Below, piece after piece: positions 8,472-60,739 of a stretch of DNA of 61,312 nt. The position numbers and the translations under genes are program-made. Under the pieces are notes generated by a model. The model saw only the letters and a list, made by a program, of their open reading frames with translations. It ran no database searches and was not told the DNA's origin. The stretch's first letter is position 1, and the number at the start of each line of letters is the position of its first letter. The DNA comes from a virus (taxonomy: Duplodnaviria; Caudoviricetes), in IMG/VR virus record IMGVR_UViG_3300025093_000022, positions 1-61,312 of that record; one strand, written 5' to 3'.

Positions 8472-9950
8472 ATGCCAAAAATTAGTCCGTTTCAAATGAC
8501 CGAAGCTAAGTCTTGGGCTGGATTGACAACTAAAAATCACTTGGGTTCTATTTTTCAAAGCGAGCCGCAAAAAGCTAGTAAACTACTTACTAGAATTGCA
8601 CAAACTAACTTTGGGCTAGACCTAGATACTTATTTAGATCAGTTCTCACCATTGTACTTAGATACTGATGATGACTTTACTTGGGACTTGGTAGGTTCTG
8701 GTAAAAAGAATGTACCTCTAGTTGAAGCTCGTATTAATGATACTGCTTTAGCTGCTACAGATACAGCTGGTTTAAACTTTACTGCTTTTGAACTTGTTTT
8801 CGCAGAGCAATGGTTTACTGACGAGCATGTAATCGTTGGTCACAAGAATGAGAAGTACCAACTTCAAATTCAATCAGATCCAGTTCCAGATGGATCATAT
8901 TGGGTATATACAGTTAAACTTTTAACTGGTGATCCAGATTTGTTTATGCCATATGAAGAGTTAACTGCCGGGACTAGATTCTCAAAAGACTTCTCTTTAG
9001 TTGAGCAAACTCTATCTAAAAAAGGTGGTGGAATTAACTTCACTTCTCCTTTCAAAATGAGAAACGCTTTCTCAATGATTCGTATGCAACATACGACTCC
9101 AGGTAACATGATTAACAGACCACTTATGACAGGTTGGGTTGGAGATCAAGGTAAAAAATATGCTACTTGGACTCAATATGAAGATTACGAGTTTGAAAGA
9201 CAATTTAGAGAAGAGAAAAACAAACTTGTTATGTTCTCAAGAGCTAACAAGAAAGATGATGGTTCTTATCAAAACACTGGTAAATCAGGTCACGTTAAGA
9301 AACAAGGAGCTGGTCTTCGTCAACAAATGGAAGCTGCTAATACAGTAGTTTATTCAACATTTGATATTGACTTCTTACTAGACACATTGTTAGAGCTTTC
9401 AGAAGGAAAACTTCCAACTGATAAGAGAGAGTTCGTAATGATGACTGGTGAAAGAGGAGCTGTTCAATTTCATGAAGCTATTGAGAACTATTCTCAATTG
9501 TTTACTAAAATGAATGACGGTTCAAGAATCTATGGTGCATCTTCAGATAATGGAGCTAAAATGCCTTTAGGTTACGGAGGTCAATTCGTTGAGTACATGG
9601 GACCACAGGGAATCAAAGTTACTCTTAAAGTTCATTCATTATATGATGATAGAGAGAGAAACAAGATTTATCACCCTGATGGTGGTGTAGCTGAATCGTA
9701 CAGATATGACATCATGGATGTTGGTACTTCTGACGGTGAGCCTAACATCAGAAAAGTATACGTTAAAGGTCAAGATGATATCATGGGATATGTACCAGGA
9801 TTTAGAGATCCATTCTCACCAACTGGTTCAAGAGCTAGAATCATGGCTGATCCAACTGACGGTTATACTATTCATAGAGGTTCAATTTGTGGTGTAATGG
9901 TGAAAGATCCATCTAGAACTGCAACGTTGTTACCTAATACTTTAGTGTAA
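8472..9950 (+). CDS. major capsid protein (HK97 fold, crAss-like)
   Basis: 492 aa; WAGLTTKNHLG, GAGLRQQME, TGERGAVQF, HPDGGVAESYRYDIMD are typical of crAss-like MCPs; highly biased codon usage; followed by a terminator. Confidence 0.92.
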   Translation: MPKISPFQMTEAKSWAGLTTKNHLGSIFQSEPQKASKLLTRIAQTNFGLDLDTYLDQFSPLYLDTDDDFTWDLVGSGKKNVPLVEARINDTALAATDTAGLNFTAFELVFAEQWFTDEHVIVGHKNEKYQLQIQSDPVPDGSYWVYTVKLLTGDPDLFMPYEELTAGTRFSKDFSLVEQTLSKKGGGINFTSPFKMRNAFSMIRMQHTTPGNMINRPLMTGWVGDQGKKYATWTQYEDYEFERQFREEKNKLVMFSRANKKDDGSYQNTGKSGHVKKQGAGLRQQMEAANTVVYSTFDIDFLLDTLLELSEGKLPTDKREFVMMTGERGAVQFHEAIENYSQLFTKMNDGSRIYGASSDNGAKMPLGYGGQFVEYMGPQGIKVTLKVHSLYDDRERNKIYHPDGGVAESYRYDIMDVGTSDGEPNIRKVYVKGQDDIMGYVPGFRDPFSPTGSRARIMADPTDGYTIHRGSICGVMVKDPSRTATLLPNTLV

Positions 9951-45200: not shown

Positions 45201-48200
45201 CTTTACAACCTGGTACATCTGGTGTTGGTAAAAATAGAATATCTGCTAATCTTAAACAAGCTAAAGTTGAGGACTTGTTAAATAGTCAAACAATTACTGG
45301 TATAGATGAAATGTTTGGTGATGTTGAAAGATTACAAAACGGAGAGATTAACTTAACTCCTAAAACTATTGCAGGTCAAGGTTACGAGATACTTAAAAGA
45401 TCTAATAACTTATTTAATTCATTATTCTCAATCAATAGTGTAGCTATGAAATTAGCTCAAGCTGTTGCTAATAATAATGATGTTAATGTTAAAGGATTTA
45501 CTGAAAAACAATTAACTCAATTAAGTAAGTTTGTTAAGAGTTATGTATTCAGCGATAAATCTAATATGTATAGTGATGAAACTGCTGTAGCATATAGAAA
45601 TAGATTAATGTTAGGTGAAAACTCTTTAGCTCATAGAGTAGAGAAGTTTAAACAATCTAATCCTAGAAATCCATTATCTCTAGCCATTAGAACGAACATC
45701 AGTAAAATTGAAGGAGTTCCTTCGACTGTTTATTATAATGCATCATCTGCTGAAAGAGGTGATGAGATGAAATACACTATTGCTATTTTACAATTATTAA
45801 ATAGTGAAGTAGCTGATGAAGTAGAGTTAGGAGAAGATCTTATTGCTTATACTTATTTAACAGGTGGTAATCAAGATGCTAAGTCTTTGTTAAAACTTTT
45901 ACCTAATACTTATTTACACTTGGTAAATTTCGGTAAAGATGTGGAAAGTTCTTCGCAGAAGATCGTGAAGGGGGAGGTTGAGATGTACCCTGTAATGAAA
46001 CAGTTGTTTCAACATTTTCCTTACCTGGCTAAGAGTGTGAGTTTAGACGAAGCTGGTACGTTAGAAGAAAATGGTAAACTTATTGTAAATACAAAACAAC
46101 CTAGATTCATTAGTATATCTTTAGATAGAGAAAGTAAACCAGTTGTTTATGAAAAAACTACAGAAAAATCAATAGATGGTATAGTTTACAAACCACTTAA
46201 TCATTTAGGTACTTATGAGTATAGTGAAACTGAATATAATGCTAAAGATCTTTCATCAGTATTAGCTGAAAATAATGTTGGTGAAGATGTTGTTGTTGTA
46301 GAAAGCCAAACTCCACCTAAAAAAGATGAGTCTATTTTAGATCCTAATGTAGCTAACGTAGCTAAGAAAGTAAACCAAACTGCTACTAGATATAGATTAG
46401 GAGAGAAAAATACTAAAGCTGTACTAGATGCTATATCTAATGCTGGTATAAGTGAAGAGAATAAAGCATTAGCTAAATCATTAGCTAGTGCAATTGGTAA
46501 TGTTCCTATTATTCAAACTGAATTACCGCCATATGCTGATGGTATTTATCAAGAAGAGAACAATGCTATTTTAATTAACAATAATCTAAAAGATCCAGTT
46601 GAGTTTGAGAGAGTAGTTTTGCACGAAGCTATGCATGCAGTACTAGCTAATGTAATTAAAAACCCAACCACTAAACAACAGAAAGAGATTATTGATTCGT
46701 TAGAAGCAGTGTTAAAAGTTGCTCAAAAAAATGAATCAGCTTTTAGTTTTAAAAATGGACTTAAAGATTTAGACGAGTTTATTTCTGAATTAATGACTGA
46801 TGTAACATTCCAAAGAGAACTAGCTACATTAGACTTTAATAAAGATATAAACTTACTACAAAGAATCTGGAAATTAATTTCAGATATCTTATCAGAAGTA
46901 ACTGGTGATGTAGTAACTCAAAGTTCTATTGAAGCAGTTGGTGAGCTAATTAAATCTACCTCTCCAACAGTAGTATCTGTTAGTGAATCTACTAATGAGT
47001 TAATAAAAGAGGCTGTTAGTTATAAAGATGTTCCAATTGTTGATTCTACTGATATAATTAATGCGGAAGGTAAAAAGGGTGCTGCTCAATACGATAGAAC
47101 TAATAATAGAATTTTAGTTGATAGATCTTTACTTAAACAAAAGTTTTCAGAACAAGCTTGGACTAATCCAAGAGATTTGATAGAGTCTATTGATGGAGTT
47201 GAAGTAACTTCTACTATGACACCAATGATGGCAGATCAGTTTTTATCTTATAAACAATTTGAAGATTTTGTTATTGCTCATGAATTTGAACATTCTAAAT
47301 ACACTAGAGAAATGCATGAGGCATTAACTTCAGATACCACTAAAGGTCAATATGAAGATGAGATTAATCGTAGAGCATTAGAGTCTTTAGGAATACCGTT
47401 TAAACCAATGCCTAAAAAGGTAACAAAAACTGAAGCTCCTGTAGAAAGCAGTCCTATTGTTTTGAATAAAGAACAACAAGCTGCTGTAGATAATACTGTA
47501 GACTTTATTAAAAATGGTAATCCAAACGAATACTATGTTATAGAGGGTAAAGCTGGTACTGGTAAAACTACTATTGCTGAAAAGATAGCTAAAGAGTTTC
47601 CAGGACAAATTATTAAGTTAGCTGCTTTATCACATAAAGCTAAAGGAGTAATTAGTAAAAAGTTTTCTAAAGCTAAAATACCAGCTACTTCACATAGTAT
47701 TGCTGGTTTATTAGGAATGACATTAGATTTATCTTCAGGTAAATTTAAAGTTGATAGAAACAGATATACACCACCTCCAATAGGTGAAGCAGATATTATA
47801 ATAATTGATGAAGCATCTATGGTTAATGAAGAGGCTTTAGAAATGATTATGCAAGGTAAATCAGCTAAAGCTAAAGTTGTTTTCTTGGGAGATATAGGAC
47901 AATTAAAACCTATTAGATCTGTTAGTAATCCATATTATAAAACAAAGAAACATTTACTAGATAAAAAATCTCCTGTATTTGAATCTACTAATAAGTCTAT
48001 GCTGACTGAAAGAGTTAGACAAGGAGAAGAATCACCTATCTTACCTTATGCTGATAACTATTGGGAAAATTCACAAATTGAAAAACCAGTATTAAATCCA
48101 ACATCACATAAAGAATCTATCTATAGTGATAAAGGTAATTTAGTATTTGCTAATGAATTTAGTGAAATTGAAAAAGAAGTTCTATCTAAATTTAAAGAGG

Positions 48201-49528
48201 CAGTTAAAACTAATAATCCTAATTTAATTAAGATAGTAGCTTATAGAAATAATGCTAAAGCTAGTTACAATAAAAAAGTACATGACGCTGTATTTGGAAA
48301 AGATGCTGCTCAATTTAATGAGGGAGAGATTATTATCTTTAATGATAACTATAAAGATTTGAAAATTCCTAATTCAACTGAAGCCGTAGTTAGTTCTGTG
48401 GATAATAAAGTACACAAACACAATAGAAGTGATATAAGATATAGATATATATCTGTTAAATTTGGAAATAGAACTGAAGTTATTCCAGTTGTAATATCTG
48501 AAGACAAACAAAAATATAAAGATTACTTAAATGTCTTAGCCAAAGAAAAGAGATGGCCTTTATTTTATAAAATTAAAGAAAACTTTGCCGATATTGATTA
48601 CGCATATGCTATTACATCTCATAAATCACAAGGTTCAACTTATGAAACTGTAATAGTAGATGCTAAAGATATCAAAGGAGTTTCTAAAATTGATAATGCT
48701 GAAAAATCAGAGAGTATTTATACTGCATTAACTAGAGCTAGTAATACAGCAATAGTTCTTGAAGGTGGTGCAAAAGCAACTGCAGGTACTACATTATACT
48801 CTGAAGAGTCATCTACTCCTCCAGACTTAGGTAAGGTACCAATTTTTGATCCTGAAACTGGAACACAACTTTTTTCACCTAGTAGAAAAGCAGCTCCTGC
48901 TGTAGCTAAAGTGTTTAAAGATAATTCAGAACTTAGTATGTTAGGAACTGCTACTCAATACCAAGATTATTTAGCAACGGTATTTCCTAGTAGTAAAGTT
49001 CCTGGAATTGTTTATCATGGAACTATAAATAAAAACATACCTTCAGAAGGATTTATTGGTAAAACTATGTTCTTCACAAAAGACCATAAAACAGCCGCTA
49101 GATATGCTGCTCAAAAAGATTCAGCTAAGTATGATATTTATTTAGAAGATTTCCAAAATGGTAAAATCTCTGAAAATGATTTATCTCCATATGTAGTACC
49201 AGCATTAGTTAATATTACTAATCCATTTATAGAAACATCTTCTAAAACATATTTAGAAAATGCTAAAACTATAAATAGAATTTCAGATATTAATGATGGT
49301 TTTGTAGCTAGTTCTGTAAAAGATACTAAAGGTATTGAAGATCAGATAGCTGTTTTTGATAGTGCTAATATTCATATATTAGGATCACAAGCTGACGTAA
49401 ATATGTTTAGAGAATATCTACAAAATGAAAACCTTCTAAATGAGAGTTTTGATAACCCATCAAAAAATAGTATTTTTAAAGAATCTTCTACTAAAGATGT
49501 AGATGAACATAAAAAACAATGTAAGTAA
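36248..49528 (+). CDS. giant virion RNA polymerase polyprotein (double-psi barrel RNAP + zincin motifs + SF1B helicase + ART-like domain)
   Basis: GTDAQ, GYRIPTQG and catalytic GSDFDIDK (44096); HEAMH (46622) and HEFEH (47279); GKAGTGKTT/IIDEASMV/GDIGQL/HKSQGST/YTALTRA; VYHGT...MFFT. N-terminal hydrophobic Gly-rich helices. Confidence 0.9.
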   Translation: MPKGDDKLNPLNKDIKQYDQDLNSTIDIFAKPSAPKYTEGIDIKLSEYEEAKKAGAGDLLTPESFLQNKEDFQKIATEKERLLNDSRARQQSLGDKIGNGLVKFGGRVFTSIAGSTIGTLHGLYAWARDGEFKSFYDNEFQDGLDGINDYLSEEFPHYYTSNKNDWEISNFIFDKVFDGLGFAVGAVGSSMLGGGATNALTKSLGWSKYMKAGAVNKLNKTLQSTTASSDDVLKATEKFTRDIRRIDKASKIPHTISSMTTGAVYESGVEARHTFDEIKEDLINSYKLEYGKAPTGQQLEEINKIAGESANGVFAANMAVVGGSNILQFSRHLGLDFSDAKKLFTNKRIATETAEGFTKKGSSTLRGVKQVLSKPIVESQEEMIQSVISGTGKDYAKKKYNNDGKADLTDLLNSSIKSFKKTYSSKEGWEEGLIGAIVGSIGVYNANKVKKGYEGNKLPSLAVIESFKDWRSDENFRNTMVGFLNETDAISSLTSSIQHMLQDGQYEKAKESALILNNVKAYKDTQDEQFHSYVTARIDAGMSDQIYSDLNKLRNIPLEEFKETFSIPAETKYTEVDKLKQIESFERRARDIQESTEFIEKNYPNQEEIHDALIFNHAMLKRISDRKDNISREIEELTGNAAITLNVTNKETGVKATAKEIFKDVDKKYQANKKAYTDLYKDYIDLSEREDKMLTEFVAYTTVPEAAKALIDELDETEQKNAKEANKGKRQKEKTKAKEKQEAKVDSAKAVAKAEEDVLVENQSVVDDIDAAQNEEEYTILDPNLKDALENDKEGRQKIIDEVNKLKKDESGVDPGTPESAKTKLKRDQKINKKSEDSKVAPKDYTKDSKTKKSAEEKIARANRGETTEGFENEEVQKEATGVYRVGKRLVNAFNAIAVRTRNFIDTPSGIKESTDEIKSATSLRILDPKFIKAKDKVEIKLNNDPNFIFYKPDGTVDPDKRNEIGTDNQIMEIYFDEELVGYLHGTDYITERRVVPIVDGADNINRNIEELAKARKEIRKHLQDNPSYSVKVVSKTAGQIRVKANEKYDAKLTDVVQDDTRPELLVIKDGTIYHKDQPLEDSPLADKLVFNPEDVYTLEDSFAEEFNGATMIAVPGANGQYVVSLVRNGSIQEADAKVKDTVLEVLNAYVANDTEALAEFGLADSKTGEVYPELVSEYINNFIYTTSDVDSPHYMFLGLNSKGNPQIRFTHKPGEKPTILEGNTEAPEYKFLEERIDGSLISTNLRSLNDNVQLTLTGGEKISYKDFIYDNLYANFVGEKIPGTNVMSYTDNPIILLDLGNPLDMTSKPKAKKKDRPSEGPLLDSAIDKKKDSKKTVSKDNPLLKSNFKRGKKSPKRDYNPEDLFKSLNPIVDAATGSLVMSQDTIDITMSLTNTVYDIISSEEKISVSEAFKQLEAALVEFRDMYESHGDTAGENAVETVLNNMDSFKLLVSQKLRVLGYNIKGGKMSEIFFESNRQEAFDQAEEETLYGDTPDITKSFNEDAIFTDNPLNKLSAQIKMKLATIPNEEANVLGMDSYYEMETVYNALLETLSDKPDMSISQMIEVLKSKAVEKPYLLYVINNILENPEIDQSVKYAFNSHFKMSYLEKELVKADSENDIRVIESNRVSLTNLIFETWLNRGKLQNLLTASAEGTQVVNKDYVTEVVDPLWETAKETKSVEDTHAYLQAVGIDISLDALREMESNSKNLEGFKRTTWKQLFTHKNRGVFRKIREALDAELPDNVHPFKNEGYIKKIAGVQAKYASDIATKSYRDVEGKSNYSYVLPTWITDRFSRLKNNKGLINKLQKIPFLERSWYLTMLKTDEKFREVFDLKVIDSIKFKGRDGQKFNKLTKKEQLIAQIGFFANSNQGKPGKRIGKFFVSKSDKSNVHVLTALRHNTTSTPEQIRDNKWSEEDKRQILDNIIGSEYSRIKDAQERRDAGVNFGDIKGYNPFIFYTFPELNDLDSIKDEDGNLLDFEDARDTMWKAISQPQEDGTPSTLKQIHTSTKAELEKYGIIENNKLKYVDRVYKGQNRTGNVDYFIRDYTLNYMIATFNYSQLFQSDVAFAAKKNKGVDVAYANMFKRLAKDMAPAVRSATSVSADYNHYNQIVLADAFNSSNNIDQLREMFPDLVPDYSGIEGTDAQEVTLLSEHINVMYHHGKITDEQYNKFYPKAVKGEYYTPAELEELIDIIKNAHKPVYVTNKYMPEYGAEVPVYLKSSSFPLVPQLVEGTAFETLERLMRTNTRKIGNKNMPMPIHRAIFESGAKLGAFKTIDAWNKATNPEGDFITYKDKAITDGTFNEEAIKEALKNNNYLTLDRAGFGIQQDVPFDESKDKIPEGSQLMKLIQTGIEDPTVVEEFNQLHIDITEKAFQNLLDELGATDNGDGTYSGLDLKKLRTLLKEELIDRGSYTENDLVALDIQEDGKGNLQFSTPLWATPKSVQFESLLNSIINKRVIKQKMPGKSYVLATEEGWQGFTSDIERITSGLKGTKYNPKTGLKPQRIGYLNEETNEKQEREYILNLIKKEKDISKLSEEKISELIKTKAKKLGFKEVVFPAQVLMTKGKWNQKQMVGYRIPTQGLNSMSAMEVVGYLPDYMADLIIAPKDFVTQMGSDFDIDKLYVHRWHETRAGRKVSKQSVQTGWEYYLESREKQEFQAESQVKQLAKVTAFLNNTFDKVDLEVSEEDVREIYDKVVTKTLTEEDYKALHEKKQKQNRIMDIYWETLTNKNNLKDVLKPLDFGNLPEVVKNIKASKQHHPLSPIRQINNYQNGNAGKFGVSVTSLASTTNALLQVVKNVITLKTFTGKAYTPVKFKFKINGEVIEVSDLNGEMTLDGSMKKIDVISAFQSASVDNIKELLIKIINYNKHTHDAFLTLSYLGLDDKYISYLLAQPIIKKYVENREALSGGFTDINVSEIEDEAYRMTFEEFGTTNPVTNWNKAFSEKALITALNNPENLENQQILLEKFKRLSESGKEINDLIRALQPGTSGVGKNRISANLKQAKVEDLLNSQTITGIDEMFGDVERLQNGEINLTPKTIAGQGYEILKRSNNLFNSLFSINSVAMKLAQAVANNNDVNVKGFTEKQLTQLSKFVKSYVFSDKSNMYSDETAVAYRNRLMLGENSLAHRVEKFKQSNPRNPLSLAIRTNISKIEGVPSTVYYNASSAERGDEMKYTIAILQLLNSEVADEVELGEDLIAYTYLTGGNQDAKSLLKLLPNTYLHLVNFGKDVESSSQKIVKGEVEMYPVMKQLFQHFPYLAKSVSLDEAGTLEENGKLIVNTKQPRFISISLDRESKPVVYEKTTEKSIDGIVYKPLNHLGTYEYSETEYNAKDLSSVLAENNVGEDVVVVESQTPPKKDESILDPNVANVAKKVNQTATRYRLGEKNTKAVLDAISNAGISEENKALAKSLASAIGNVPIIQTELPPYADGIYQEENNAILINNNLKDPVEFERVVLHEAMHAVLANVIKNPTTKQQKEIIDSLEAVLKVAQKNESAFSFKNGLKDLDEFISELMTDVTFQRELATLDFNKDINLLQRIWKLISDILSEVTGDVVTQSSIEAVGELIKSTSPTVVSVSESTNELIKEAVSYKDVPIVDSTDIINAEGKKGAAQYDRTNNRILVDRSLLKQKFSEQAWTNPRDLIESIDGVEVTSTMTPMMADQFLSYKQFEDFVIAHEFEHSKYTREMHEALTSDTTKGQYEDEINRRALESLGIPFKPMPKKVTKTEAPVESSPIVLNKEQQAAVDNTVDFIKNGNPNEYYVIEGKAGTGKTTIAEKIAKEFPGQIIKLAALSHKAKGVISKKFSKAKIPATSHSIAGLLGMTLDLSSGKFKVDRNRYTPPPIGEADIIIIDEASMVNEEALEMIMQGKSAKAKVVFLGDIGQLKPIRSVSNPYYKTKKHLLDKKSPVFESTNKSMLTERVRQGEESPILPYADNYWENSQIEKPVLNPTSHKESIYSDKGNLVFANEFSEIEKEVLSKFKEAVKTNNPNLIKIVAYRNNAKASYNKKVHDAVFGKDAAQFNEGEIIIFNDNYKDLKIPNSTEAVVSSVDNKVHKHNRSDIRYRYISVKFGNRTEVIPVVISEDKQKYKDYLNVLAKEKRWPLFYKIKENFADIDYAYAITSHKSQGSTYETVIVDAKDIKGVSKIDNAEKSESIYTALTRASNTAIVLEGGAKATAGTTLYSEESSTPPDLGKVPIFDPETGTQLFSPSRKAAPAVAKVFKDNSELSMLGTATQYQDYLATVFPSSKVPGIVYHGTINKNIPSEGFIGKTMFFTKDHKTAARYAAQKDSAKYDIYLEDFQNGKISENDLSPYVVPALVNITNPFIETSSKTYLENAKTINRISDINDGFVASSVKDTKGIEDQIAVFDSANIHILGSQADVNMFREYLQNENLLNESFDNPSKNSIFKESSTKDVDEHKKQCK

Positions 49529-52500
49529 TGGCGAAGTGTCCTAATAAAAATAGTAGTTTATATAAACGTTTATCAAACCAATTTTCTGAAGATAATATCT
49601 TTAGAATTTGGGATGCTATAACTACACCAGAGTTTGATGCTTGGTATGGTAATAACACTAGAGATAAAGATGGTATGCCTTTTATTAATAAGTATTTTCA
49701 AATACAAAATGATAAAGGTCAAGTAGGTAATTTATTACAAGATACAGTCAAACTAACATCTGTTACTGAAGTAGAAAAACTATTATCTGCTCAAAAGACC
49801 GAAGGCATATCTTTATATAAAGGTAGATACTATGTATCTAAAAATAAAAAGATGCAAGGGGAAAATATGGTTAAATTACTTAACCGTTATTATCCTGGTC
49901 TTTTAGAGAGAACCTCTTATTTCACTGCATCACAAGCTATTGGTGTTAGTGATCCGTCTCTACCTACGACTTACCTTACAATTAATAATGTATTTACTGC
50001 TCAAGGTAGAATACTTTATTCTCCATCTAGAAGTACTTTATTAGAGGCTCCTGAATCTGAAACAGGTGAAATGGAATATCTAATAAATAGATTAGATGAA
50101 TATAAAGAGAGAGTTCATGACCAATTAATAAATGCTAAAGAAGAAGCGAAACAAACTAAAGATTACCGTAAAGTAGAAAGTTTAACAAATAAACAAGATG
50201 AATTAGAACTAGCTATTGATGAATTAAAAATAGATCAAACAGTTCAAAATATATCTAAAATTGCTAATATTAATTTAGATTATGTAGAAAAACTTTTAGA
50301 GAAGAAAGACACTATTAGTATTACAGAGCTTAATGAAATTAATGATATCTTAGGTTTCTATGAACATCTAGATTCTACTGAAAAATCTAAACATCCTGTA
50401 TCTTTTTTAACTAAATCTGATTTTGTTAAGAGAAACACTGTTAAGATAGATGCTCAAGGTAATGAGACTATTGAAAAAGATTATCCAGAATCTACTAAAA
50501 AAATACAAGGTATAGCCTTAACAGCCAGAAATCTTAGAGAAGATTACAACGTTCTTATTAAAGAAGCAGTTACTAAGTATTATAATGAAACATACGAGAA
50601 AAATAAAACTATTGAAGAATTATTTGAAAATATAAAAGATATTACAGCTTCAGCTAAAATGACTAGAGATGCTGCTAGTGTTAATAACTCTTTACTTAGT
50701 TTATTACACTCTGTTAATAATGATGCATCTAGAGTAGCTAATGCTAAAACCACCCAAGATCAAAAAGAAAGAGAAGAAATGCTTGAGACATTAGAAAAAA
50801 GTTCACCTTCTTCTTTGTATAAAAGATTGGGTAGAAAAAAGTTTATGCAAATGTTTTGGCAAAAAGATGATAAAGGTAATAATACTGGTGGATTAATTAA
50901 TGAATATTCTCATAAATATAAAAAAGTAAAGGGTAGATTGTTTAACAAGATGTTTTATTCTGATTCTGTGGAAGAGGTTAAAGCTGCTAAAGAAGAATTT
51001 AATGCTACTCACGAATTTGTTAATTATTTCTTAGTAGAAAATAAAGATGGAACTATAAATGAAGAGGCTACTGCTATTGCTAAAGAGAAAGAGTTTAATA
51101 GATTAGCTGAAATTTTTGATAAAGATAGAGTCAAAGAAATTATAGATGAAATGCACATTGAGTTTAAAAACTTTAGGACTAGACGAGAAGATGCTTATGC
51201 TGAAATAGACTCATTAGAAATTACAAATAATGCTAAAATTGCAAAAAAAGAGCGTTGGTATTATCGTAACCATCCTACTATAAGTATTAATGACATTAGA
51301 GATGGAAATGTTCGTATAGATAAATTTGGAAATATGATTAAATTTAATTCTGAATTTGTTAGAGCTATTCCTTTAAAAATAAATAGAGGTGGAGAGCAAA
51401 CTAATTTTTATGATAGTGCTTTTGAAGCAATAAAAAAAGATGCTACAGCTTATGAGTATTATAAATACGTAAATGGTACTATTAAAAAACTTTTAGCCTT
51501 CTATCCAAAATCACATCTAGATGCAAAAGGTATACATGAAGGATTTATACCAACTCTCAAAAAAAGCTTATTACAACAATTTATGCAAGACGGTATGGGG
51601 TTATCTTTGTCCAAAATGCATGAAACTGCTAGAAGATGGTTTAGTATAAAAACTTATTCTAAATCTTACGATCATATAGACGTATCAACTGGTCAAGTAA
51701 AAGATTCATTAAATATTAGAATGTTATCTCCAAATTATAAATATGTAGATGGTGGAGAAGTAATAGATACTTCAGATATTGTAACTGATTTAGATGAAAT
51801 TTTAAATCAATTTATACCTGTTACTAATATGTATAGATATAAATCTAAATTAGAAGCTACTCATAATATGATTTTAAACTCCATTGACCAAATGCAAGGA
51901 GTACAACAAACACCAACTGGAGTTAATCTTACTGGGGGCTTAGAAGGAGCTGATATTGTAGACAATTTAAACCATTTAAAAGAGTTAGCTAGATTTCTTA
52001 ATGAAATTTATTATGAAAAACAAGAAAAAGACGTTGCTAGTAAACAAAAAGTTTTAAGTAAAGAGGAGAAAAAACAAAAAGATAATTTAGAAGAAAAAAT
52101 AGATGAACTTAAAAAGAAATTAATAGACGAAAGAGATACATTAACTCAAGAACAACAAGAGGGTATTAGAAATTCTATTGAGGGGATAAAAAGAAAATTA
52201 TCCGATTTAGGTACAAATGTTTCTAGTACCAAATCAATAAAATCAATCTTAAAATATTTTCAATTAGTTTCACAAGGTTGGAATTTGAGTTCAGCTAGTA
52301 TAGAGCTTGTTTATGGATTTGCATCTAATAATATGCATGCAGCTGGTGGAATTGAATATACAACTAAACAAATATCAGCTGCTTATAAAATAGCAATGGC
52401 GGCTACTATGCCTGGAGCTAACACTAAAACTATTAGAAAGTTCCTTTCATTAATTGAAAAGTTTGATGTTATTGGTGAGGTTGCTGAAAACGAAAGAAAT

Positions 52501-53541
52501 AGCGCACATCATTCTCGTAAATCTAAGTTTAGTGCAAAGAAAGCTTTAGCTCCATACGAAATGATGAGAAGGGCGGATATGGTTTCTAAAGGGTCGGTGA
52601 TGATTGCTATGATGATGAATACTAATCTTGAAGGTAATCCATTACAAGAGGGTGAAACTTCTTTATGGGAAGCTTTCAATGAAGATGGCGAGATCAAGGA
52701 AGACTATGCTGAACATAAAGAGACTTGGGAACCTATAGATGCTAATAAGTCTTTAAGATTTGCTACTAAAATAGCTCAAGTCAATAAAAGAAATCATGGT
52801 AACTACGATCCTAATTCTCAAATTATGGCTAACTCTACCGCTTTAGGGAAAGCGTTACTTCAATTTAGACGTTGGATGTTAGAGGGGTTTGCTACTAGAT
52901 TTGAAAAACAAGATTATAATGATAATTTACAAAGACTAGTTAAAGGTCGTTATAGAACTTACGGTACTCTAGTTACTCAATTAGGAGGTGGAAATATTGT
53001 TAAAGGATCTGTTAAAACTACTTCGCTAATGTTTAAGGCATTGCTGCATAATTTTGCCTTTAGAAATATGTCTGACGAACAATTAAAAGCAGCTGGGGTA
53101 GAAGGTGCTGAGTTTTCTGAAGCTGACCTAGAAAACATTAGAAAAAATGCTTCAGGTCTTAAGTGGTTGATAATAGTATTTAGTGCTTTAGGAATGATAA
53201 AAGCTGCTCTAGATGATGATGAAGATAATATTGGTGTAGTAAATTTCTTGCTAAATCAAGGTGGTCGTCTACAACAGGATTTAAATTTCTACGCTAATCC
53301 GTCAACAATGGGAGATATCACTAAAAATATCGTTCCAGCATTTAAACTATTTGATCGTGCAAGTTCTTGGCTTGAAGCTATGAAAAATACGGTATTAGAT
53401 TTAGACCCTGAATATTCAACAGTTTATGAGAGGGGGGATTTTAAAGGTAGTAGTAAATTACTTATAAAATCTGGTGAGATGTTACCTGGTACTTCAACTG
53501 TTATTAGAACAATGAGAAATGCCGCTAAACTATACGATTAA
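49528..53541 (+). CDS. large internal virion cargo/ejection protein
   Basis: 1337 aa; MAKCPN start; HGNY...LLQFRRWM...GRYRT and late hydrophobic helices typical of crAss-like cargo proteins. Confidence 0.7.
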   Translation: MAKCPNKNSSLYKRLSNQFSEDNIFRIWDAITTPEFDAWYGNNTRDKDGMPFINKYFQIQNDKGQVGNLLQDTVKLTSVTEVEKLLSAQKTEGISLYKGRYYVSKNKKMQGENMVKLLNRYYPGLLERTSYFTASQAIGVSDPSLPTTYLTINNVFTAQGRILYSPSRSTLLEAPESETGEMEYLINRLDEYKERVHDQLINAKEEAKQTKDYRKVESLTNKQDELELAIDELKIDQTVQNISKIANINLDYVEKLLEKKDTISITELNEINDILGFYEHLDSTEKSKHPVSFLTKSDFVKRNTVKIDAQGNETIEKDYPESTKKIQGIALTARNLREDYNVLIKEAVTKYYNETYEKNKTIEELFENIKDITASAKMTRDAASVNNSLLSLLHSVNNDASRVANAKTTQDQKEREEMLETLEKSSPSSLYKRLGRKKFMQMFWQKDDKGNNTGGLINEYSHKYKKVKGRLFNKMFYSDSVEEVKAAKEEFNATHEFVNYFLVENKDGTINEEATAIAKEKEFNRLAEIFDKDRVKEIIDEMHIEFKNFRTRREDAYAEIDSLEITNNAKIAKKERWYYRNHPTISINDIRDGNVRIDKFGNMIKFNSEFVRAIPLKINRGGEQTNFYDSAFEAIKKDATAYEYYKYVNGTIKKLLAFYPKSHLDAKGIHEGFIPTLKKSLLQQFMQDGMGLSLSKMHETARRWFSIKTYSKSYDHIDVSTGQVKDSLNIRMLSPNYKYVDGGEVIDTSDIVTDLDEILNQFIPVTNMYRYKSKLEATHNMILNSIDQMQGVQQTPTGVNLTGGLEGADIVDNLNHLKELARFLNEIYYEKQEKDVASKQKVLSKEEKKQKDNLEEKIDELKKKLIDERDTLTQEQQEGIRNSIEGIKRKLSDLGTNVSSTKSIKSILKYFQLVSQGWNLSSASIELVYGFASNNMHAAGGIEYTTKQISAAYKIAMAATMPGANTKTIRKFLSLIEKFDVIGEVAENERNSAHHSRKSKFSAKKALAPYEMMRRADMVSKGSVMIAMMMNTNLEGNPLQEGETSLWEAFNEDGEIKEDYAEHKETWEPIDANKSLRFATKIAQVNKRNHGNYDPNSQIMANSTALGKALLQFRRWMLEGFATRFEKQDYNDNLQRLVKGRYRTYGTLVTQLGGGNIVKGSVKTTSLMFKALLHNFAFRNMSDEQLKAAGVEGAEFSEADLENIRKNASGLKWLIIVFSALGMIKAALDDDEDNIGVVNFLLNQGGRLQQDLNFYANPSTMGDITKNIVPAFKLFDRASSWLEAMKNTVLDLDPEYSTVYERGDFKGSSKLLIKSGEMLPGTSTVIRTMRNAAKLYD

Positions 53542-54467: not shown

Positions 54468-54776
54468 CTATGTATTCTTGATGTCTTTAATTCTTTTATA
54501 AGCAGCATGCCACTCATCTTCATCATCAAATATCACAAAACGTTTAATACCCACTTCAATTTGATCTTCTTCGTTTTTTCTGAAGATTAGTTCTATTTCA
54601 AACCCTTCAGCCAGATCTGTTGTATGAGTAGGTGCAAATAAATATGGAAAATTAATCTGATTATCTAATGTTAAATCTTCAGTATCAATTTCAGCATATA
54701 TTTGTTTAATTGCGGTATTTAATTGTTCTTGAGTTAACGGTATGTTTCTTATATCTCTAGTATCTATTTCTGTCAT
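54468..54776 (-). CDS. hypothetical protein
   Basis: 102-aa ORF within an operon. Confidence 0.65.
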   Translation of the reverse strand: MTEIDTRDIRNIPLTQEQLNTAIKQIYAEIDTEDLTLDNQINFPYLFAPTHTTDLAEGFEIELIFRKNEEDQIEVGIKRFVIFDDEDEWHAAYKRIKDIKNT

Positions 54777-55488: not shown

Positions 55489-56094
55489 TTATTTCTCTTT
55501 TAAAATATTTTTAATAGTAGATACACCAACATTATATAATTCAGCAAGTTCAAGTTGAGTTAACTTTCCTCTATTATAATAATATTTTATATTTTGTTTT
55601 TTAGTTTCTTTAAGCTCAGTAATAGTCTCAGCTATTCCTTTACGTTGTCTAATTCTATGAACTTTTTCAACTGATATACCATAAAATTCAGCAACATCCT
55701 TAGATTTTATACCCTTTTTAATCATAAAACCTATAGTATCTCTTTCAAAATTAGTAAGCTCTTTTTTATAATAAATAGGATCTTTTCTACATACTCTTTC
55801 ATTAAAATAAGAAAGTGCTTTCATAAACATTCTATCATTACTCTCTAAAAACTCTCTATATTTTCGTAAACCGTGAGTTATTGTTGCATGATTTCTACCT
55901 CCATATCTAGCTCCTATTTTACCAAGAGTCATAGCTGTAGTTGTATGTAAATATTCAAAACAAAGATATCTAGCAATAGCTGCTGCTGCAGACCCTCTAG
56001 TAGCTCTCGCCCCGTCTCCTTTATCTCCATATAAATCTTCTAAAGTAATATCAACAGCATCACAAGCTATTTGTTCAAAACTCCAATCTATCAT
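55489..56094 (-). CDS. DnaA domain IV-like HTH protein with two extra HTHs
   Basis: AIARYLCFEYL...MTLGKIGARYGGRNHATITHGLRK matches DnaA_C (ARQIAMYL...IG..FGGRDHTTV.HA); KDVAEFYGIS and ELAELYNVGVSTI HTHs. Confidence 0.7.
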   Translation of the reverse strand: MIDWSFEQIACDAVDITLEDLYGDKGDGARATRGSAAAAIARYLCFEYLHTTTAMTLGKIGARYGGRNHATITHGLRKYREFLESNDRMFMKALSYFNERVCRKDPIYYKKELTNFERDTIGFMIKKGIKSKDVAEFYGISVEKVHRIRQRKGIAETITELKETKKQNIKYYYNRGKLTQLELAELYNVGVSTIKNILKEK

Positions 56095-56318: not shown

Positions 56319-56728
56319 ATATCTAACATTTTCATTAATTTTTTTAACTCTGATTTGTTTTTAATGTTACCTTGAAACACAAATTCACTGTTCCAATTAT
56401 AAATCTGTATAAACCAGAAACCATCTTCTAAATTATCATGTAAATACATTTGAAATTCATTATTTTTATCTCTATGATTATAAATAAAACAACTCATTGC
56501 AAACTTTTCACCATCTACCCAACCCAAACTCTTTATATCTTCTTGGTCTAGGTGTTTGACTCTCATTGATTTTAAGCCTATTTCCTGAATACCTCTTGCA
56601 GTATCAGCGAATCCATAGGTTTGTTTTCTCCATGTAGTATCTACAAGGTTATCATGTATGTCTTCTATTTCATACTCAAACCCAACATGGAACTCTTCTA
56701 TCTCTGGTGTGTAATACTTATCTTCCAT
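56315..56728 (-). CDS. hypothetical phage protein (YYTPxIEEFHVGFEYE type)
   Basis: 137-aa ORF; RVKHLDQEDIKSLGW and F.G.IKNKSELKKLMKML. Confidence 0.7.
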   Translation of the reverse strand: MEDKYYTPEIEEFHVGFEYEIEDIHDNLVDTTWRKQTYGFADTARGIQEIGLKSMRVKHLDQEDIKSLGWVDGEKFAMSCFIYNHRDKNNEFQMYLHDNLEDGFWFIQIYNWNSEFVFQGNIKNKSELKKLMKMLDI

Positions 56729-57308
56729 TATGTATTTTATTTAATTCAATAACTACTCTAGCAAATCCGCCTGCTTTAGGGGTTGCTATTAAATTTTCGG
56801 CTAAACTTAATTGAATAAGATCTATATCAACATCTTCATTTGAATATATTAGTACATCTCTATCAATTTTATCTATAAAGTCTTCTAATAGTTTAAAATT
56901 ATGTTCTTCTTTTTCAATAGACCAAGCTCTACCTGGAAAATGCATAGCTGTTACTATAACTATAGTTTTACTAGAATCATATTTGTTAATTTCATTTAAA
57001 TAAAAGTCAACATTACCTTGATTATCTAATCCTCTAACAATAGTCTCATCTCCTGTTCTAACATGAACTAAAACATGATTATTATCAAATAACTCTAATC
57101 TTTTAGATCTTTCTATTATTATCTTATAAAGAACTTCCAAATCAAATTTATCATGAGGAGTTTTAAAATACTCTTTCATAATACTATCTTTAAATTTAGA
57201 ATCACTTAATAATTCTTTGACTGTAAAATAGTCATCTGGAAAATTTAATAAATCATGTATTCTATAAACAGAATTGCCTTTTAGAATTTTTATATCACTT
57301 CTTCTCAT
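56718..57308 (-). CDS. glycosyltransferase family 11/23-like (fucosyltransferase-like) protein
   Basis: VLVHVRTGD (cf. HxRRGD), Y..., DIDLIQLSLAENLIA...GGF motifs. Confidence 0.5.
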   Translation of the reverse strand: MRRSDIKILKGNSVYRIHDLLNFPDDYFTVKELLSDSKFKDSIMKEYFKTPHDKFDLEVLYKIIIERSKRLELFDNNHVLVHVRTGDETIVRGLDNQGNVDFYLNEINKYDSSKTIVIVTAMHFPGRAWSIEKEEHNFKLLEDFIDKIDRDVLIYSNEDVDIDLIQLSLAENLIATPKAGGFARVVIELNKIHNGR

Positions 57309-57492
57309 AATTAGTAATTAATCGTTCTAAATACCACTTAGCCTTTTTAAGATCTTCAATTCCATTTTTATTCTTATATCTAGAAACATATTTAACGATA
57401 TTTCCTTGATAAAAATCTAACTCCATAGAATCTATTAAATCTATAGGTTGAATATCTTTACCTTTATAATGCTTTGGATTTATTTTATTCAT
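57295..57492 (-). CDS. DUF3310 (SaV-like / T7 gp1.7-related) protein
   Basis: INPKHY...IQPIDLI...FYQGNIVKYVSRY..KNGIEDLKKAKWYLERL. Confidence 0.85.
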   Translation of the reverse strand: MNKINPKHYKGKDIQPIDLIDSMELDFYQGNIVKYVSRYKNKNGIEDLKKAKWYLERLITNYEKK

Positions 57493-57782
57493 ATTTTATA
57501 ATTCTTTAAAAACAAAAGAAGGCCGGCCGGAGACAGACAGAGGGGGGGTGAGGGGTATCTTTCAAACCACACATCTAATTTTTCCATAAATTTATTTAGA
57601 TCTATATCATATTCTTTTTTAGGATCAAACTTTCCATTAGAAGCTTTTAACAGTTGCTCGTAATATTTTTTAGCCTTTTCTTGCTTAAAAATATAAGATG
57701 TAGTTTCTGATTTAGATTTTTCTTTAAAAGTTTTACTATGATGTTTTAATAAATCATCTATTGTTAAATTAACTTTCTTCAT
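57489..57782 (-). CDS. hypothetical protein
   Basis: 97-aa ORF overlapping its neighbours. Confidence 0.6.
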   Translation of the reverse strand: MKKVNLTIDDLLKHHSKTFKEKSKSETTSYIFKQEKAKKYYEQLLKASNGKFDPKKEYDIDLNKFMEKLDVWFERYPSPPLCLSPAGLLLFLKNYKI

Positions 57783-57990
57783 ACCCTTTTAAATTATGTT
57801 TAAACTTTGGGTAACCTTTCCAAACTCCTTCACCATCTTCATCTGTAGTACCATACCAAAAATTTAAAGTCTGCTTAAAAATATAAACTGTGGTAGGTTT
57901 TCCAAAACTAACTAGCTCTAAAGTACCAATGTATCTGCCCTCATATTTTATATAATCTATAAAATCATCTAACTTTATACTTTTATTCAT
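57769..57990 (-). CDS. hypothetical protein
   Basis: 73-aa ORF overlapping its neighbours. Confidence 0.6.
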   Translation of the reverse strand: MNKSIKLDDFIDYIKYEGRYIGTLELVSFGKPTTVYIFKQTLNFWYGTTDEDGEGVWKGYPKFKHNLKGYEES

Positions 57991-58402
57991 CTTTCAATTT
58001 ATTAATTTCATCAATAGTTAAAGCTCTAGTTATTTTACCATCTACAATTTCATATCCTTCAATACCAAAAAGTATTTGAGTTTTAACACCTTTCTCAATA
58101 ATTTCATCATCTATTTCATCATCTATTTCTCCCCACTCTAAACTTTCTTCTATAGTAGCTGGTTTACTATAAATATCACTTGATCTAGTAGCGTATGTAT
58201 AAGTTTCCCATTTAAACTCTTTATCTACAGGAACAGCATCCCACATATCTTTAAGCATTTTCTCCATCTTTTCAGATGTTAGCTTATCAGCTTTATATAC
58301 AGTAGAACTTTTTTCCATTTGAGCTAATATTCCATCACCTGTTTTTATAGAATCGTCATCCTCTATCTCAAGTCTTTTTGACTTAATCTTTTTCTTCTTC
58401 AT
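57983..58402 (-). CDS. protein whose N-half resembles MCP residues ~276-322
   Basis: IKTGDGILAQMEKSSTV...VPVDKEF vs MCP KKQGAGLRQQMEAANTV...LPTDKREF. Confidence 0.7.
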   Translation of the reverse strand: MKKKKIKSKRLEIEDDDSIKTGDGILAQMEKSSTVYKADKLTSEKMEKMLKDMWDAVPVDKEFKWETYTYATRSSDIYSKPATIEESLEWGEIDDEIDDEIIEKGVKTQILFGIEGYEIVDGKITRALTIDEINKLKDE

Positions 58403-58544
58403 CTATACCTAAATTAAAATTTTTATCTCCCTTTTTTATAACAATGGGCTTTTTTAGTAAACTAGGATTAGCTTTACCATTTCTGTCATAAAATATAAAA
58501 CCTAGAAAGTAAGTATCCCCTTTTTTAAAGCCTATTTTACTCAT
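58383..58544 (-). CDS. 53-aa protein resembling a conserved muzzle-protein motif (not in the ORF track)
   Basis: MSKIGFKKGDTYFLGFIFYDRNGKANPSLLKKPIVIKKGDKNFNLGIDEEEKD; fills the gap between UDG and 57983..58402, overlapping both. Confidence 0.65.
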   Translation of the reverse strand: MSKIGFKKGDTYFLGFIFYDRNGKANPSLLKKPIVIKKGDKNFNLGIDEEEKD

Positions 58545-59325
58545 TTTCTTCATCTTTAGGTGGTATTATTTCTATTTTATCATGTTCCATAAATAATGGG
58601 TTAGGCATTAAAGTAACTTTAGTCTCCCCATATTGTAGTGTCTGGAATCCATTTAACCAATTAATAGGTAATTTTAGATATTCATTACACTTACTAAAAG
58701 GTTTAGTACCAAAGAAGTTCTTACAACTAAATGGACTAGGATGTGCTGATTCTATAAATTTATGAGTAGGATTATTTAAATACTTCTTATATGATTTAGC
58801 ATGATTACCCCAAAGAATAAACACTAAATCATCTTTAGTATTTAAAGTTTTCATTACTTGTTTAGTAAATCCATTCCAATAATAAGCATGAGAACCAGGT
58901 TGCCCTTTAGTTACAGTCAAAGCTGTATTTAAAAGTAAAACACCTTGATCTACCCAATGTTGTAAAGTATAGTCAAAGCCTTCAACAGAACCTATATCGC
59001 TTTCTAACTCTTTAAAAATATTTTTTAGACTAGGTTGAACTCTATACCCTCCATCACAAGCAAATGCTCTACCAAGAGCTGCAGGTGTGTTATCATAGTA
59101 AGAGTTATGGTATGGATCTTGCCCAATAATCACAACTCTTACATCTGATAACGGTGTTTCATCAAAAACTCTAAATATATTTTCTTTTAAAGGATATACC
59201 TCACTAGTTTTTCTATCTTCAACTATTTTTTTATTTAATTGTTTAAATTCATCAGATTGAAAATAAGGCCATAAAGCATTAGCCCAATCTAATTGCATTA
59301 AACTTTGTAGTTTAGCTTTTGTCAT
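58537..59325 (-). CDS. ung: uracil-DNA glycosylase family 1 with C-terminal extension
   Basis: GQDPYH, QPSLKNIFKEL, QGVLLLNTALTV, FILWG and HPSP motifs. Confidence 0.92.
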   Translation of the reverse strand: MTKAKLQSLMQLDWANALWPYFQSDEFKQLNKKIVEDRKTSEVYPLKENIFRVFDETPLSDVRVVIIGQDPYHNSYYDNTPAALGRAFACDGGYRVQPSLKNIFKELESDIGSVEGFDYTLQHWVDQGVLLLNTALTVTKGQPGSHAYYWNGFTKQVMKTLNTKDDLVFILWGNHAKSYKKYLNNPTHKFIESAHPSPFSCKNFFGTKPFSKCNEYLKLPINWLNGFQTLQYGETKVTLMPNPLFMEHDKIEIIPPKDEENE

Positions 59326-59714
59326 ATTAAATGATTTTCTAACAAATATTCTTTAACTTTATCCCAATCAACATAAGGTCTATCTAATAAATTTTTTGGG
59401 TAAATTAGTGGACATCCTAATGCCGCATCATCAATATATAATTGACCATATGCCTTCGGAGAAGTTGTCCAAGTATGTTGTTCTGGATTTTTTTGAATAC
59501 CATATAGCTCTATATCATTAGTATCAAACCAATTTACAGCGTCACCTAATTCAGAACCATCTCTCATTGTAAATAAAATAAGATCATGTCCATTTTCTAT
59601 TAATTTTTTTAATATAGGAACTGCTCCAATATCTTCACCAACTTTAGGATATTTATGTTTTACACAAGTACCATCAAAATCAACACATATTTTTAATCTA
59701 TTTCCTGTTTTCAT
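59322..59714 (-). CDS. HAD-superfamily phosphatase-like protein (BT0820-like)
   Basis: ICVDFDGT motif I, LILFTMR motif II, K...LYIDD motifs III/IV. Confidence 0.8.
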   Translation of the reverse strand: MKTGNRLKICVDFDGTCVKHKYPKVGEDIGAVPILKKLIENGHDLILFTMRDGSELGDAVNWFDTNDIELYGIQKNPEQHTWTTSPKAYGQLYIDDAALGCPLIYPKNLLDRPYVDWDKVKEYLLENHLI

Positions 59715-59715
59715 A

Positions 59716-59961
59716 TTAAATTAATTTTTCTACTATTTCACATAACCATTTTTCCAATTCTTTATAGTTGTTACTACCTTCAACATATTCACATTGTAAT
59801 CCACCGAAATATCTATATTGATCTTTATATTCATCTTTACAAATACTATTTGATTTAGTATAAGAAAACATAAAAGATTTTCCAGTAATCATTATAGTAT
59901 CTTCTCCTAACTTATTTATAGTATAGTTTTTAAGTATCTCTTTCTTTTTCATATCATACAT
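59716..59961 (-). CDS. hypothetical protein
   Basis: 81-aa ORF within an operon. Confidence 0.6.
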   Translation of the reverse strand: MYDMKKKEILKNYTINKLGEDTIMITGKSFMFSYTKSNSICKDEYKDQYRYFGGLQCEYVEGSNNYKELEKWLCEIVEKLI

Positions 59962-60385
59962 AACTAAAATGTTTCTCTAACCATTTATTTAATTTAGTAG
60001 AGGATTCTTTAACTAGATGTATACATTCTCTAACATCTGTTTTAGGATACCAAACTACATAACCTTTATGAGTTCTAAGATCAATACCTTTACCGGAAGT
60101 TTTATTAGCTAGTACTTTATTGCCGGTATATTTTAACCAGTAATGCATACCATTGTTTTTAGTTTTATAATTAAAAGTAGAATCTAATTCTTCTATTATA
60201 TCATCAGGAATATTATCAAAACCATCAGTATCACCATGCCTATCGACATCTATTACAACATATCCTTTAGAAGGAGTAACGGCCAGAGAAAATCCCTCTG
60301 GCACATTACCCTTAAAATATGTTTCATCTGGCAACATCCCCCACTTAATAATAGGACGTTTGCCTTTAAGTAGGAAACTTTTCAT
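59954..60385 (-). CDS. stand-alone bifunctional DNA primase/polymerase (Prim-Pol) N-terminal domain
   Basis: KRP...W, VVIDVDRH, T..NGMHYW and GIDLRT..GYVV. Confidence 0.8.
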   Translation of the reverse strand: MKSFLLKGKRPIIKWGMLPDETYFKGNVPEGFSLAVTPSKGYVVIDVDRHGDTDGFDNIPDDIIEELDSTFNYKTKNNGMHYWLKYTGNKVLANKTSGKGIDLRTHKGYVVWYPKTDVRECIHLVKESSTKLNKWLEKHFSYV

Positions 60386-60388
60386 ATT

Positions 60389-60739
60389 TTAAAATTTATA
60401 CATTTTTTTAGCTTCAGAAGTTCTCCAATAATTACCGTAATTATTATTATAAGCATAATTTAAAACTCTTTCTAACTCTTCTACATACGCTTTTCTATAA
60501 CCAGTAGTTTTAGCTGGTCTTCTAATAAAAGATTTATCTACTGCTATATTTAAATCTTCATAACTAAATTCAAAAGCAGGATCGCTATTTTCTTTTTGAA
60601 TTTCTTCTTCTAAGTAAATAGCGAAGCCACATAAAGCTACACAAGCCCCATTAAGCCCACTTCCACTATCGTTAAAGTTCAACCCATTATCTATTACAAA
60701 CTTTGTTAGTGTCTGTATTCCTTGTTCTTTACTCTTCAT
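60389..60739 (-). CDS. hypothetical protein
   Basis: 116-aa ORF. Confidence 0.65.
   Translation of the reverse strand: MKSKEQGIQTLTKFVIDNGLNFNDSGSGLNGACVALCGFAIYLEEEIQKENSDPAFEFSYEDLNIAVDKSFIRRPAKTTGYRKAYVEELERVLNYAYNNNYGNYWRTSEAKKMYKF

Follow-up and report, generated by a model that had tools for sequence, protein, structure and literature searches.

A rare small-protein family in a crAss-like phage with a module very probably related to the major capsid protein

Introduction

In the genome of a marine crAss-like phage, a small gene outside the structural region encodes a protein, P0002, part of which recalls a stretch of the phage's own major capsid protein (MCP). The original prediction for this locus was that a capsid-derived segment had been repurposed in a non-structural gene, so it is of interest to know whether the likeness is due to common ancestry or to chance and, if ancestry is the answer, what a piece of a capsid protein would do in a small protein of this kind. 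To our knowledge, capsid-protein fragments are not known as parts of small accessory phage proteins. Full-text literature searches for such fragments in such proteins found no phage case, which is no proof that none is in print. This paper describes the gene, the small family to which its product belongs and the relationship between this family and the Crassvirales MCP, and then discusses the possible modes of action.

The gene and its genomic setting

The window, that is, the whole stretch of DNA that was analysed, is a crAss-like phage record of 61,312 bases (CheckV completeness, 64%), and the source phage is a marine crAss-like phage. The plus strand carries packaging, structural and giant-protein genes over about 53 kb, and this is followed by a minus-strand block which extends from about 53.5 kb to the end. 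A 389-aa ORF (7274-8443) adjoins the MCP gene, and the plus-strand block ends with two very long ORFs, 36248-49528 (4426 aa) and 49528-53541 (1337 aa). The minus-strand block around P0002 is a replication block, tightly packed with overlapping starts and stops, in which the neighbours listed in Table 1 are encoded.

The 139-aa ORF of the original prediction, which gave no strand, is real and lies on the minus strand. At its start it shares bases with the end of a 56-aa ORF, and at its stop with the beginning of a 73-aa ORF; no plus-strand ORF of at least 40 aa overlaps positions 57983-58402. A promoter and terminator scan of 56500-60500 gave nothing near the ORF above shuffles. P0002 is presumably non-structural, in view of the place of its gene in the replication block.

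Table 1. Coordinates in the window of the P0002 gene and its parts, of neighbouring genes and of the MCP gene
Feature	Position	Strand	Remarks
Whole ORF, protein P0002	57983..58402	-	139 codons plus stop, ATG start; member of six-member small-protein family
P0002 residues 1-18, lysine-rich N-terminal tail	58349..58402	-	M-K-K start in five of six members, M-S-K in P0006; net charge +2; modelled disordered, AF2 pLDDT below 50
P0002 residues 19-56, MCP-like module, G-x-G-hydrophobic-x-x-Q-M-E	58235..58348	-	very probably homologous to MCP 276-312; modelled helix 25-31, strand 34-38, helix 43-56 (pLDDT 55-60, low)
P0002 residues 57-104, variable linker	58091..58234	-	acidic in P0002; insertions and deletions between relatives; includes non-conserved VPVDKEF
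P0002 residues 105-139, C-terminal domain	57986..58090	-	most conserved part of the family; modelled three strands plus helix; not MCP-related, no known family
Uracil-DNA glycosylase (UDG)	58537-59325	-	neighbour, same direction as P0002 gene
Prim-Pol protein	59954-60385	-	neighbour, same direction as P0002 gene
DUF3310 protein	57295-57492	-	neighbour, same direction as P0002 gene
DnaA_C/HTH protein	55489-56094	-	neighbour, same direction as P0002 gene
Major capsid protein (MCP) gene, 492 aa	8472..9950	+	presumed source family of the module; Pfam Crass_capsid E 2.7e-156; PDB 7qof, gp32 of crAss001, E 1.6e-115
MCP residues 276-312, stretch matched by the small family	9297..9407	+	holds MCP-invariant G279, G281, Q285, E287

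Alternatively, the ORF might be what is left of an MCP fragment in decay, or a frame that is open by chance, and the tiny size of the family would suit such a non-functional sequence. Against this, the reading frame, the module and the C-terminal domain have been retained in five relatives, the most distant of which is 36% identical, and the genes on either side are fitted closely to the ORF, head to tail. We therefore regard a non-functional sequence as extremely unlikely. Variation between contigs is in line with this judgement. A contig from another run, about 93% identical and covering 57880-58154, differs at nine listed places in the ORF (four synonymous, three I/V, one K to T as in relatives and one I to N), and another contig has an in-frame deletion of three bases in the ORF. 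These variants would argue weakly for a coding constraint on the P0002 ORF. The sequencing runs listed for this sequence included no RNA run. Of the four DNA runs compared, one possibly supplied the window itself, and the rest contributed only short, diverged pieces. A contig of run X3 joins 57844 to 58395, skipping 550 bases, that is, nearly the whole ORF; its shorter side consists of 20 letters at 80% likeness, maybe from another organism, and this joint is regarded as unreliable.

The small-protein family and its anatomy

P0002 has five relatives (P0003-P0007) in the protein collections searched, which makes a family of six members. An exhaustive phmmer search over 1.84 billion representatives gave four of them, with E values from 6.6e-43 to 2.9e-6, and word-indexed and profile searches added one. 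The relatives are 36-68% identical to P0002 in the family alignment, in which one architecture is found throughout the six members: a lysine-rich tail, an MCP-like module, a variable linker and a conserved C-terminal domain. Within the module, G24, Q28, M29, V35 and T42 are invariant in the family. The loci encoding the relatives were sought with the family alignments and with P0007 in viral, metagenome and genome contig collections, and none was found there. In tblastn against the phage collection, P0002 gave nothing and P0007 gave one row only, at E 0.6.

Outside the module, P0002 had been described as acidic and as unrelated to MCP. The second part of this description stands: hhalign of the C-terminal part against the MCP profile gave a probability of 0.1%, and on this figure the idea that the C-terminal domain is a colinear continuation of the MCP A-domain was rejected. 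The first part holds for P0002, with its pI of 4.70, but not for the family, in which the pI extends up to 9.22. Acidity is consequently no family trait, and the idea of an acidic DNA mimic was rejected.

Structure prediction by AF2 gave a mean pLDDT of 36.7 with three sequences and 46.1 with six, the values being 55-63 in the module and the C-terminal part of the latter model. In this low-confidence six-sequence model, the helix-strand-helix of the module (Table 1) is followed by disorder at residues 58-105 and then by the C-terminal part, with strands at 107-112, 115-120 and 123-127 and a helix at 130-138. A Foldseek search with the same low-confidence model found no match in PDB at E up to 0.001, and the ESM Atlas gave no usable hit by features, every structure row having a TM below 0.5. 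As for sequence families, the C-terminal domain matched nothing in Pfam, PHROGs, NCBIfam or PADLOC. The whole of P0002 matched no PADLOC or NCBIfam family at E up to 1, and its matches in PHROGs were of E 0.03 or weaker only and were to families of unknown function. The P0002 family belongs to no named family.

Another minus-strand ORF of the window, 54468-54776 (102 aa), was considered as a paralogue of P0002 and was not supported as such (hhalign probability, 4.7%). This ORF scores 11.5 bits with the family HMM, over the helix, the linker and the start of the C-terminal domain, and 21.9 bits against MCP in BLASTP.

The match between P0002 and the MCP of the same phage

The likeness had been described as an ungapped alignment of P0002 residues 20-35 with MCP 277-292, with 8 identities among 16 residues, and this alignment was reproduced with a BLOSUM62 score of 38. 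Taken as a single pair, the match is ordinary and not beyond chance. BLASTP of P0002 against its own MCP gives 18.5 bits and E 0.11; when the ORF is shuffled 1000 times, 3.4% of the shuffles reach its best ungapped score against MCP; and among the 74 window ORFs compared with MCP, of which 71 gave any alignment, 14 unrelated ones outscore P0002. Because of these three results, the P0002/MCP pair alone would be called chance.

The original prediction also carried the match onwards, through an amphipathic helix, to VPVDK-EF in P0002 and LPTDKREF in MCP. L41-W54 of P0002 does pair with F297-S310 of MCP, but a one-residue gap is needed, which hhalign puts in the same spot. The last element fails: it is deleted in P0004, different in P0005-P0007 and outside the profile-profile alignment.

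Homology of the module at the family level

If the G-x-G/Q-M-E motif and the amphipathic helix had arisen independently, by chance or convergence and without common ancestry, a single pair of such ordinary significance and an aligned stretch as short as 37 columns would be understandable. Nevertheless, such an origin becomes very unlikely when the family, not P0002 alone, is compared with MCPs. In hhalign, the family against 32 MCPs from related contigs gave P 1.5e-6 and a probability of 90% over the 37 columns, with one single-residue gap, residues 19-56 corresponding to MCP 276-312; against an alignment of 16 MCPs, P was 1.8e-6. The lack of any significant match to MCP profiles had been named beforehand as fatal to the claim, and a match was thus found with both alignments. 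Furthermore, the order of helix, strand and helix is colinear in the two proteins, which chance would not readily produce.

Profile searches in both directions gave the same result. With an HMM of the 32 MCPs, P0002 has the highest score of the 73 non-MCP ORFs in the window, and five of the six family members, P0005 being the exception, align to HMM positions 276-319. Composition-matched shuffles almost never attain the scores of the real proteins with the MCP HMM, since among 3000 of them one exceeds P0002 and none exceeds P0007, and this also tells against chance. Conversely, with a family HMM built without P0002, residues 273-311 of the window MCP rank next after the ORF itself among 74 ORFs (12.8 bits, E 1.1e-4). 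Moreover, the distant members P0006 and P0007 are more like the MCP stretch than P0002 itself is, another point which is hard to reconcile with convergence: P0007 is identical to the window MCP at 19 of 35 positions (31.6 bits, E 5e-6) and P0006 scores 26.6 bits against it (E 2e-4).

The Pfam results are weaker and speak, as far as thresholds are concerned, on the side of chance, for every Pfam match of the family lies below the gathering score. Among 24,736 Pfam families the sole match of P0002 is Crass_capsid (PF23898, curated cut-off 27 bits, profile of about 496 positions), with E 0.022 and 13.6 bits, residues 17-56 corresponding to profile positions 278-316. The sole Pfam match of P0007 is likewise Crass_capsid (E 0.01, 14.7 bits, profile positions 269-315), and P0006 alone matches PF05065 Phage_capsid, the HK97-type family (15.2 bits against a cut-off of 24.2, E 0.014, residues 19-77 to positions 125-182 of 280). 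The Pfam scan gave no Crass_capsid match in P0003-P0006, and no Pfam capsid match of any kind in P0003 or P0005. The search of PDB sequences with the family profile, in which crAss001 gp32 was not found and the best match was an importin (E 0.025), speaks on the same side. P0002 is not a member of the MCP family, as it falls below the score cut-off and covers 37 of the approximately 496 positions.

A six-frame search of 24 crAss-like records with the family profile matched the MCP stretch in 19, with no match in four and a non-MCP match in one. The 19 comprise three of the five long IMG/VR records, four of the five Steigviridae genomes, including crAss001, and 12 of the 14 shorter contigs; as all 24 records hold related MCPs, the 19 matches are not independent. 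The MCP stretch was the only six-frame match in these 19 records, so the matches are clearly specific to it, and this again argues against an independent origin.

The residues concerned are among those that MCPs hold constant. The alignment of 16 MCPs has 57 invariant columns, including G279, G281, Q285 and E287, with M286 nearly invariant, and these pair with P0002 as G279-G22, G281-G24, Q285-Q28, M286-M29 and E287-E30. The original prediction had proposed that homologues should conserve the residues of GxGxxxQME, and they do so in part: G24, Q28 and M29 are present in all six members, but G22 and E30 in four only.

On these grounds, the module of about 37 residues is very probably homologous to MCP 276-312. 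The claim of a capsid-derived segment is accordingly upheld at the family level, by the Pfam matches, the distant relatives, hhalign, the HMMs and the six-frame searches.

Age, source and probable direction of the capture

The transfer probably took place from MCP to the small gene, because every one of the 32 MCPs in the alignment has the stretch, as does the Pfam model, and the small family has six members. It had been suggested that P0002 should be compared with many MCPs to see whether its module is closest to the MCP of its own phage. It is not, with 9 of 35 identities to its own MCP versus up to 13 of 35 to MCPs of other contigs. The module of P0007 is closest to the window-type MCP, at the 19/35 identities given above. 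At the nucleotide level, codon-aligned P0002 and its own MCP are identical at 30 of 60 bases in the first 20 codons. A recent copy from the phage's own MCP was rejected on these two figures, 9/35 identities and 30/60 bases. Because the P0002 module is not closest to its own MCP, the capture appears to be old relative to the divergence of the family, and not recent.

A stand-alone module in another crAss-like record

A complete crAss-like record of 99.8 kb (G002) has an MCP 52% identical to that of the window, and the only match of the family profile in it is not the MCP but a 60-aa ORF (L043 1489-1671, minus strand, at about 77.2 kb of G002, E 3.8e-5). AGGAGG stands six bases ahead of its TTG start. 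The ORF scores 20.7 bits with the family HMM, the best of 2000 shuffles reaching 9.4, and is 42% identical to P0007 over 43 columns (E 3.6e-5). In BLASTP it finds the same MCP stretch in 29 of the 32 MCPs, the best being its own MCP, which shares the top score of 25.0 bits with one other.

This ORF has in common with the P0002 family the module, including a one-residue insertion relative to MCPs, and differs from it in consisting of the module only, with neither linker nor C-terminal domain. The module can thus stand alone, as a putative 60-aa ORF. The packaging and structural genes lie downstream of this ORF on the same strand, and it shares about 50-70 bases with each of its flanking ORFs.

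Both records encode a protein of about 185 aa immediately ahead of the terminase (window 1788-2342, plus strand; G002 L043 990-1553, minus strand). The two are alike by eye, with W-K-R-D-K-T-K in common, and have no Pfam family at threshold.

Possible modes of action

The best explanation of the whole combines a real gene, an old MCP-derived module, the module as the working part and mimicry of the MCP element; it is put forward tentatively, and we would rate the combination at slightly less than an even chance. According to it, the module would be an old copy of MCP 276-312 inside a four-part protein and would be the working part of that protein, presenting the same surface as the MCP element and binding the usual contact of that element. 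The partner of the mimic would be a neighbouring MCP subunit or an assembly partner, a chaperone, or a host sensor of unassembled MCP, and the C-terminal domain would supply oligomerisation or a second contact. That the module would imitate the MCP element is suggested by two properties, namely that it keeps residues which MCPs never change and that it can exist alone. Mimicry by itself, as the mode of action, is a possibility which we consider somewhat unlikely.

In terms of the HK97 fold, MCP 276-312 (about 285-321 in crAss001 gp32) is presumably the junction of the P- and A-domains, where the glycine-rich loop that follows the spine helix comes to its end and gives way to a short helix, a strand and the first helix of the A-domain. 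This placing would follow from the general course of the fold, from the position just behind the predicted spine helix and a glycine-rich loop, and from a low-confidence secondary structure. In the part of the crAss001 capsid structure paper that was used here, the sole domain borders given are those of the insertion domain, residues 79-180 (PMC10172136). The MCP stretch may be largely buried in the folded MCP, and this would favour a plain structural unit over surface mimicry. A complex prediction for MCP and P0002, both as alignments, gave a score of 0.00, which is neither for nor against binding.

Such a plain unit is the core of a second explanation, structural exaptation, in which a new small alpha/beta protein with a job unrelated to capsids, whether replication-linked, regulatory or in host take-over, uses the MCP piece as an ordinary helix-strand-helix building block. 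In that case the strand of the module may pair with the three C-terminal strands, and G, Q and M may be kept for the folding of the module. The AF2 model, which has one strand in the module (34-38) and three in the C-terminal part (107-127), would permit such a sheet, but it is of low confidence. The location of the gene among replication genes, on the strand opposite to the structural genes, is in favour of exaptation, and so is the fact that the most conserved part of the family is the C-terminal domain, which is not MCP-like; however, the module occurs alone in the 60-aa ORF, so the C-terminal domain is not required. Likewise, other MCPs are at least as close to the module as its own MCP is, and its nucleotide identity is that of 30 bases in 60; nothing here indicates that the two genes still co-evolve or undergo gene conversion, which agrees with a job outside the capsid. 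On the other hand, the positions invariant in the family coincide with those invariant in MCPs, which speaks against a mere building block. We consider exaptation, the main rival of mimicry, about as probable as mimicry itself, and thus somewhat unlikely.

Returning to mimicry of the MCP element, a special case of it is an anti-defence decoy, an early protein which would occupy a host immune sensor or chaperone of new MCP and so block the sensor before the capsid protein appears. Bacterial proteins of the required kind exist: as described in parts of two published reports, Avs7 and Dsr1 are sensors that bind phage MCPs (PMC13581612) and CmdTAC is a system that senses phage MCP (PMC11618068). 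The P0002 gene lies in a block expected to be expressed ahead of the structural genes, and its family has few members with a patchy distribution, which is common among accessory counter-defence genes. Nevertheless, the PADLOC and NCBIfam models gave no match, a copy of the trigger could equally activate the sensor, and the stand-alone module of G002 adjoins packaging and structural genes, not early genes. A decoy is therefore held to be quite improbable.

In its broadest form, mimicry of the MCP element would make the module a portable capsid-protein mimic, used by phages of this clade alone or fused to a small domain, which would occupy a partner of unassembled MCP. The partner would be either a host sensor or chaperone, the mimic being a decoy ahead of the real trigger, or an MCP assembly interface, the mimic being a timer or poison of assembly, possibly directed against competing phages. 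This generalisation is improbable.

Comparison with known systems and significance

With the Crassvirales MCP (PF23898; crAss001 gp32, PDB 7qof), P0002 has in common the colinear stretch and the MCP-conserved G, G, Q, M and E positions within it. It differs in that about 37 of the 492 MCP residues are shared and the rest of P0002 is unrelated, and in that its gene belongs to the replication block. A complete HK97 fold is absent from P0002, which has 139 residues of which 37 are MCP-like, and it cannot form an HK97-fold shell subunit.

Phage satellites encode MCP homologues that redirect capsid size, for example Ccm of the cos-type PICIs, and these are full HK97-fold proteins. Only under mimicry would P0002 resemble them, as a capsid-derived sequence outside the main capsid gene acting on assembly. 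Unlike Ccm, which is a full-fold protein of a phage parasite, P0002 has a 37-residue fragment within a small protein of the phage itself.

Short regions of MCPs are also known as immunity determinants, as with the Gol peptide of T4 gp23, which is recognised via the Lit protease. Gol/Lit, Avs7/Dsr1 and CmdTAC resemble the proposed mimicry in showing that another protein can bind specifically to one particular part of a capsid protein. They differ in that they are host sensors of MCP and not phage-encoded MCP fragments, and P0002 has no match to the defence-system models of PADLOC.

If mimicry is true, nature would have provided in the module a minimal handle on a single element of the Crassvirales MCP, and the module would reveal which part of MCP is a binding determinant; capsid assembly or the sensing of MCP could also be inhibited with it or monitored through it. 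Should the module be a building block and nothing more, the family would still show cleanly, and with statistical support, how part of a structural gene has gone into a new small protein of a phage. Being very rare, the family has only limited general importance at present.

In the phage cr111_1, a record in which the family profile gave no match, the annotation splits the MCP gene (MT774387.1, 10881-13487) in two around an ORF of 531 bases, which is named a homing endonuclease in the RefSeq copy.
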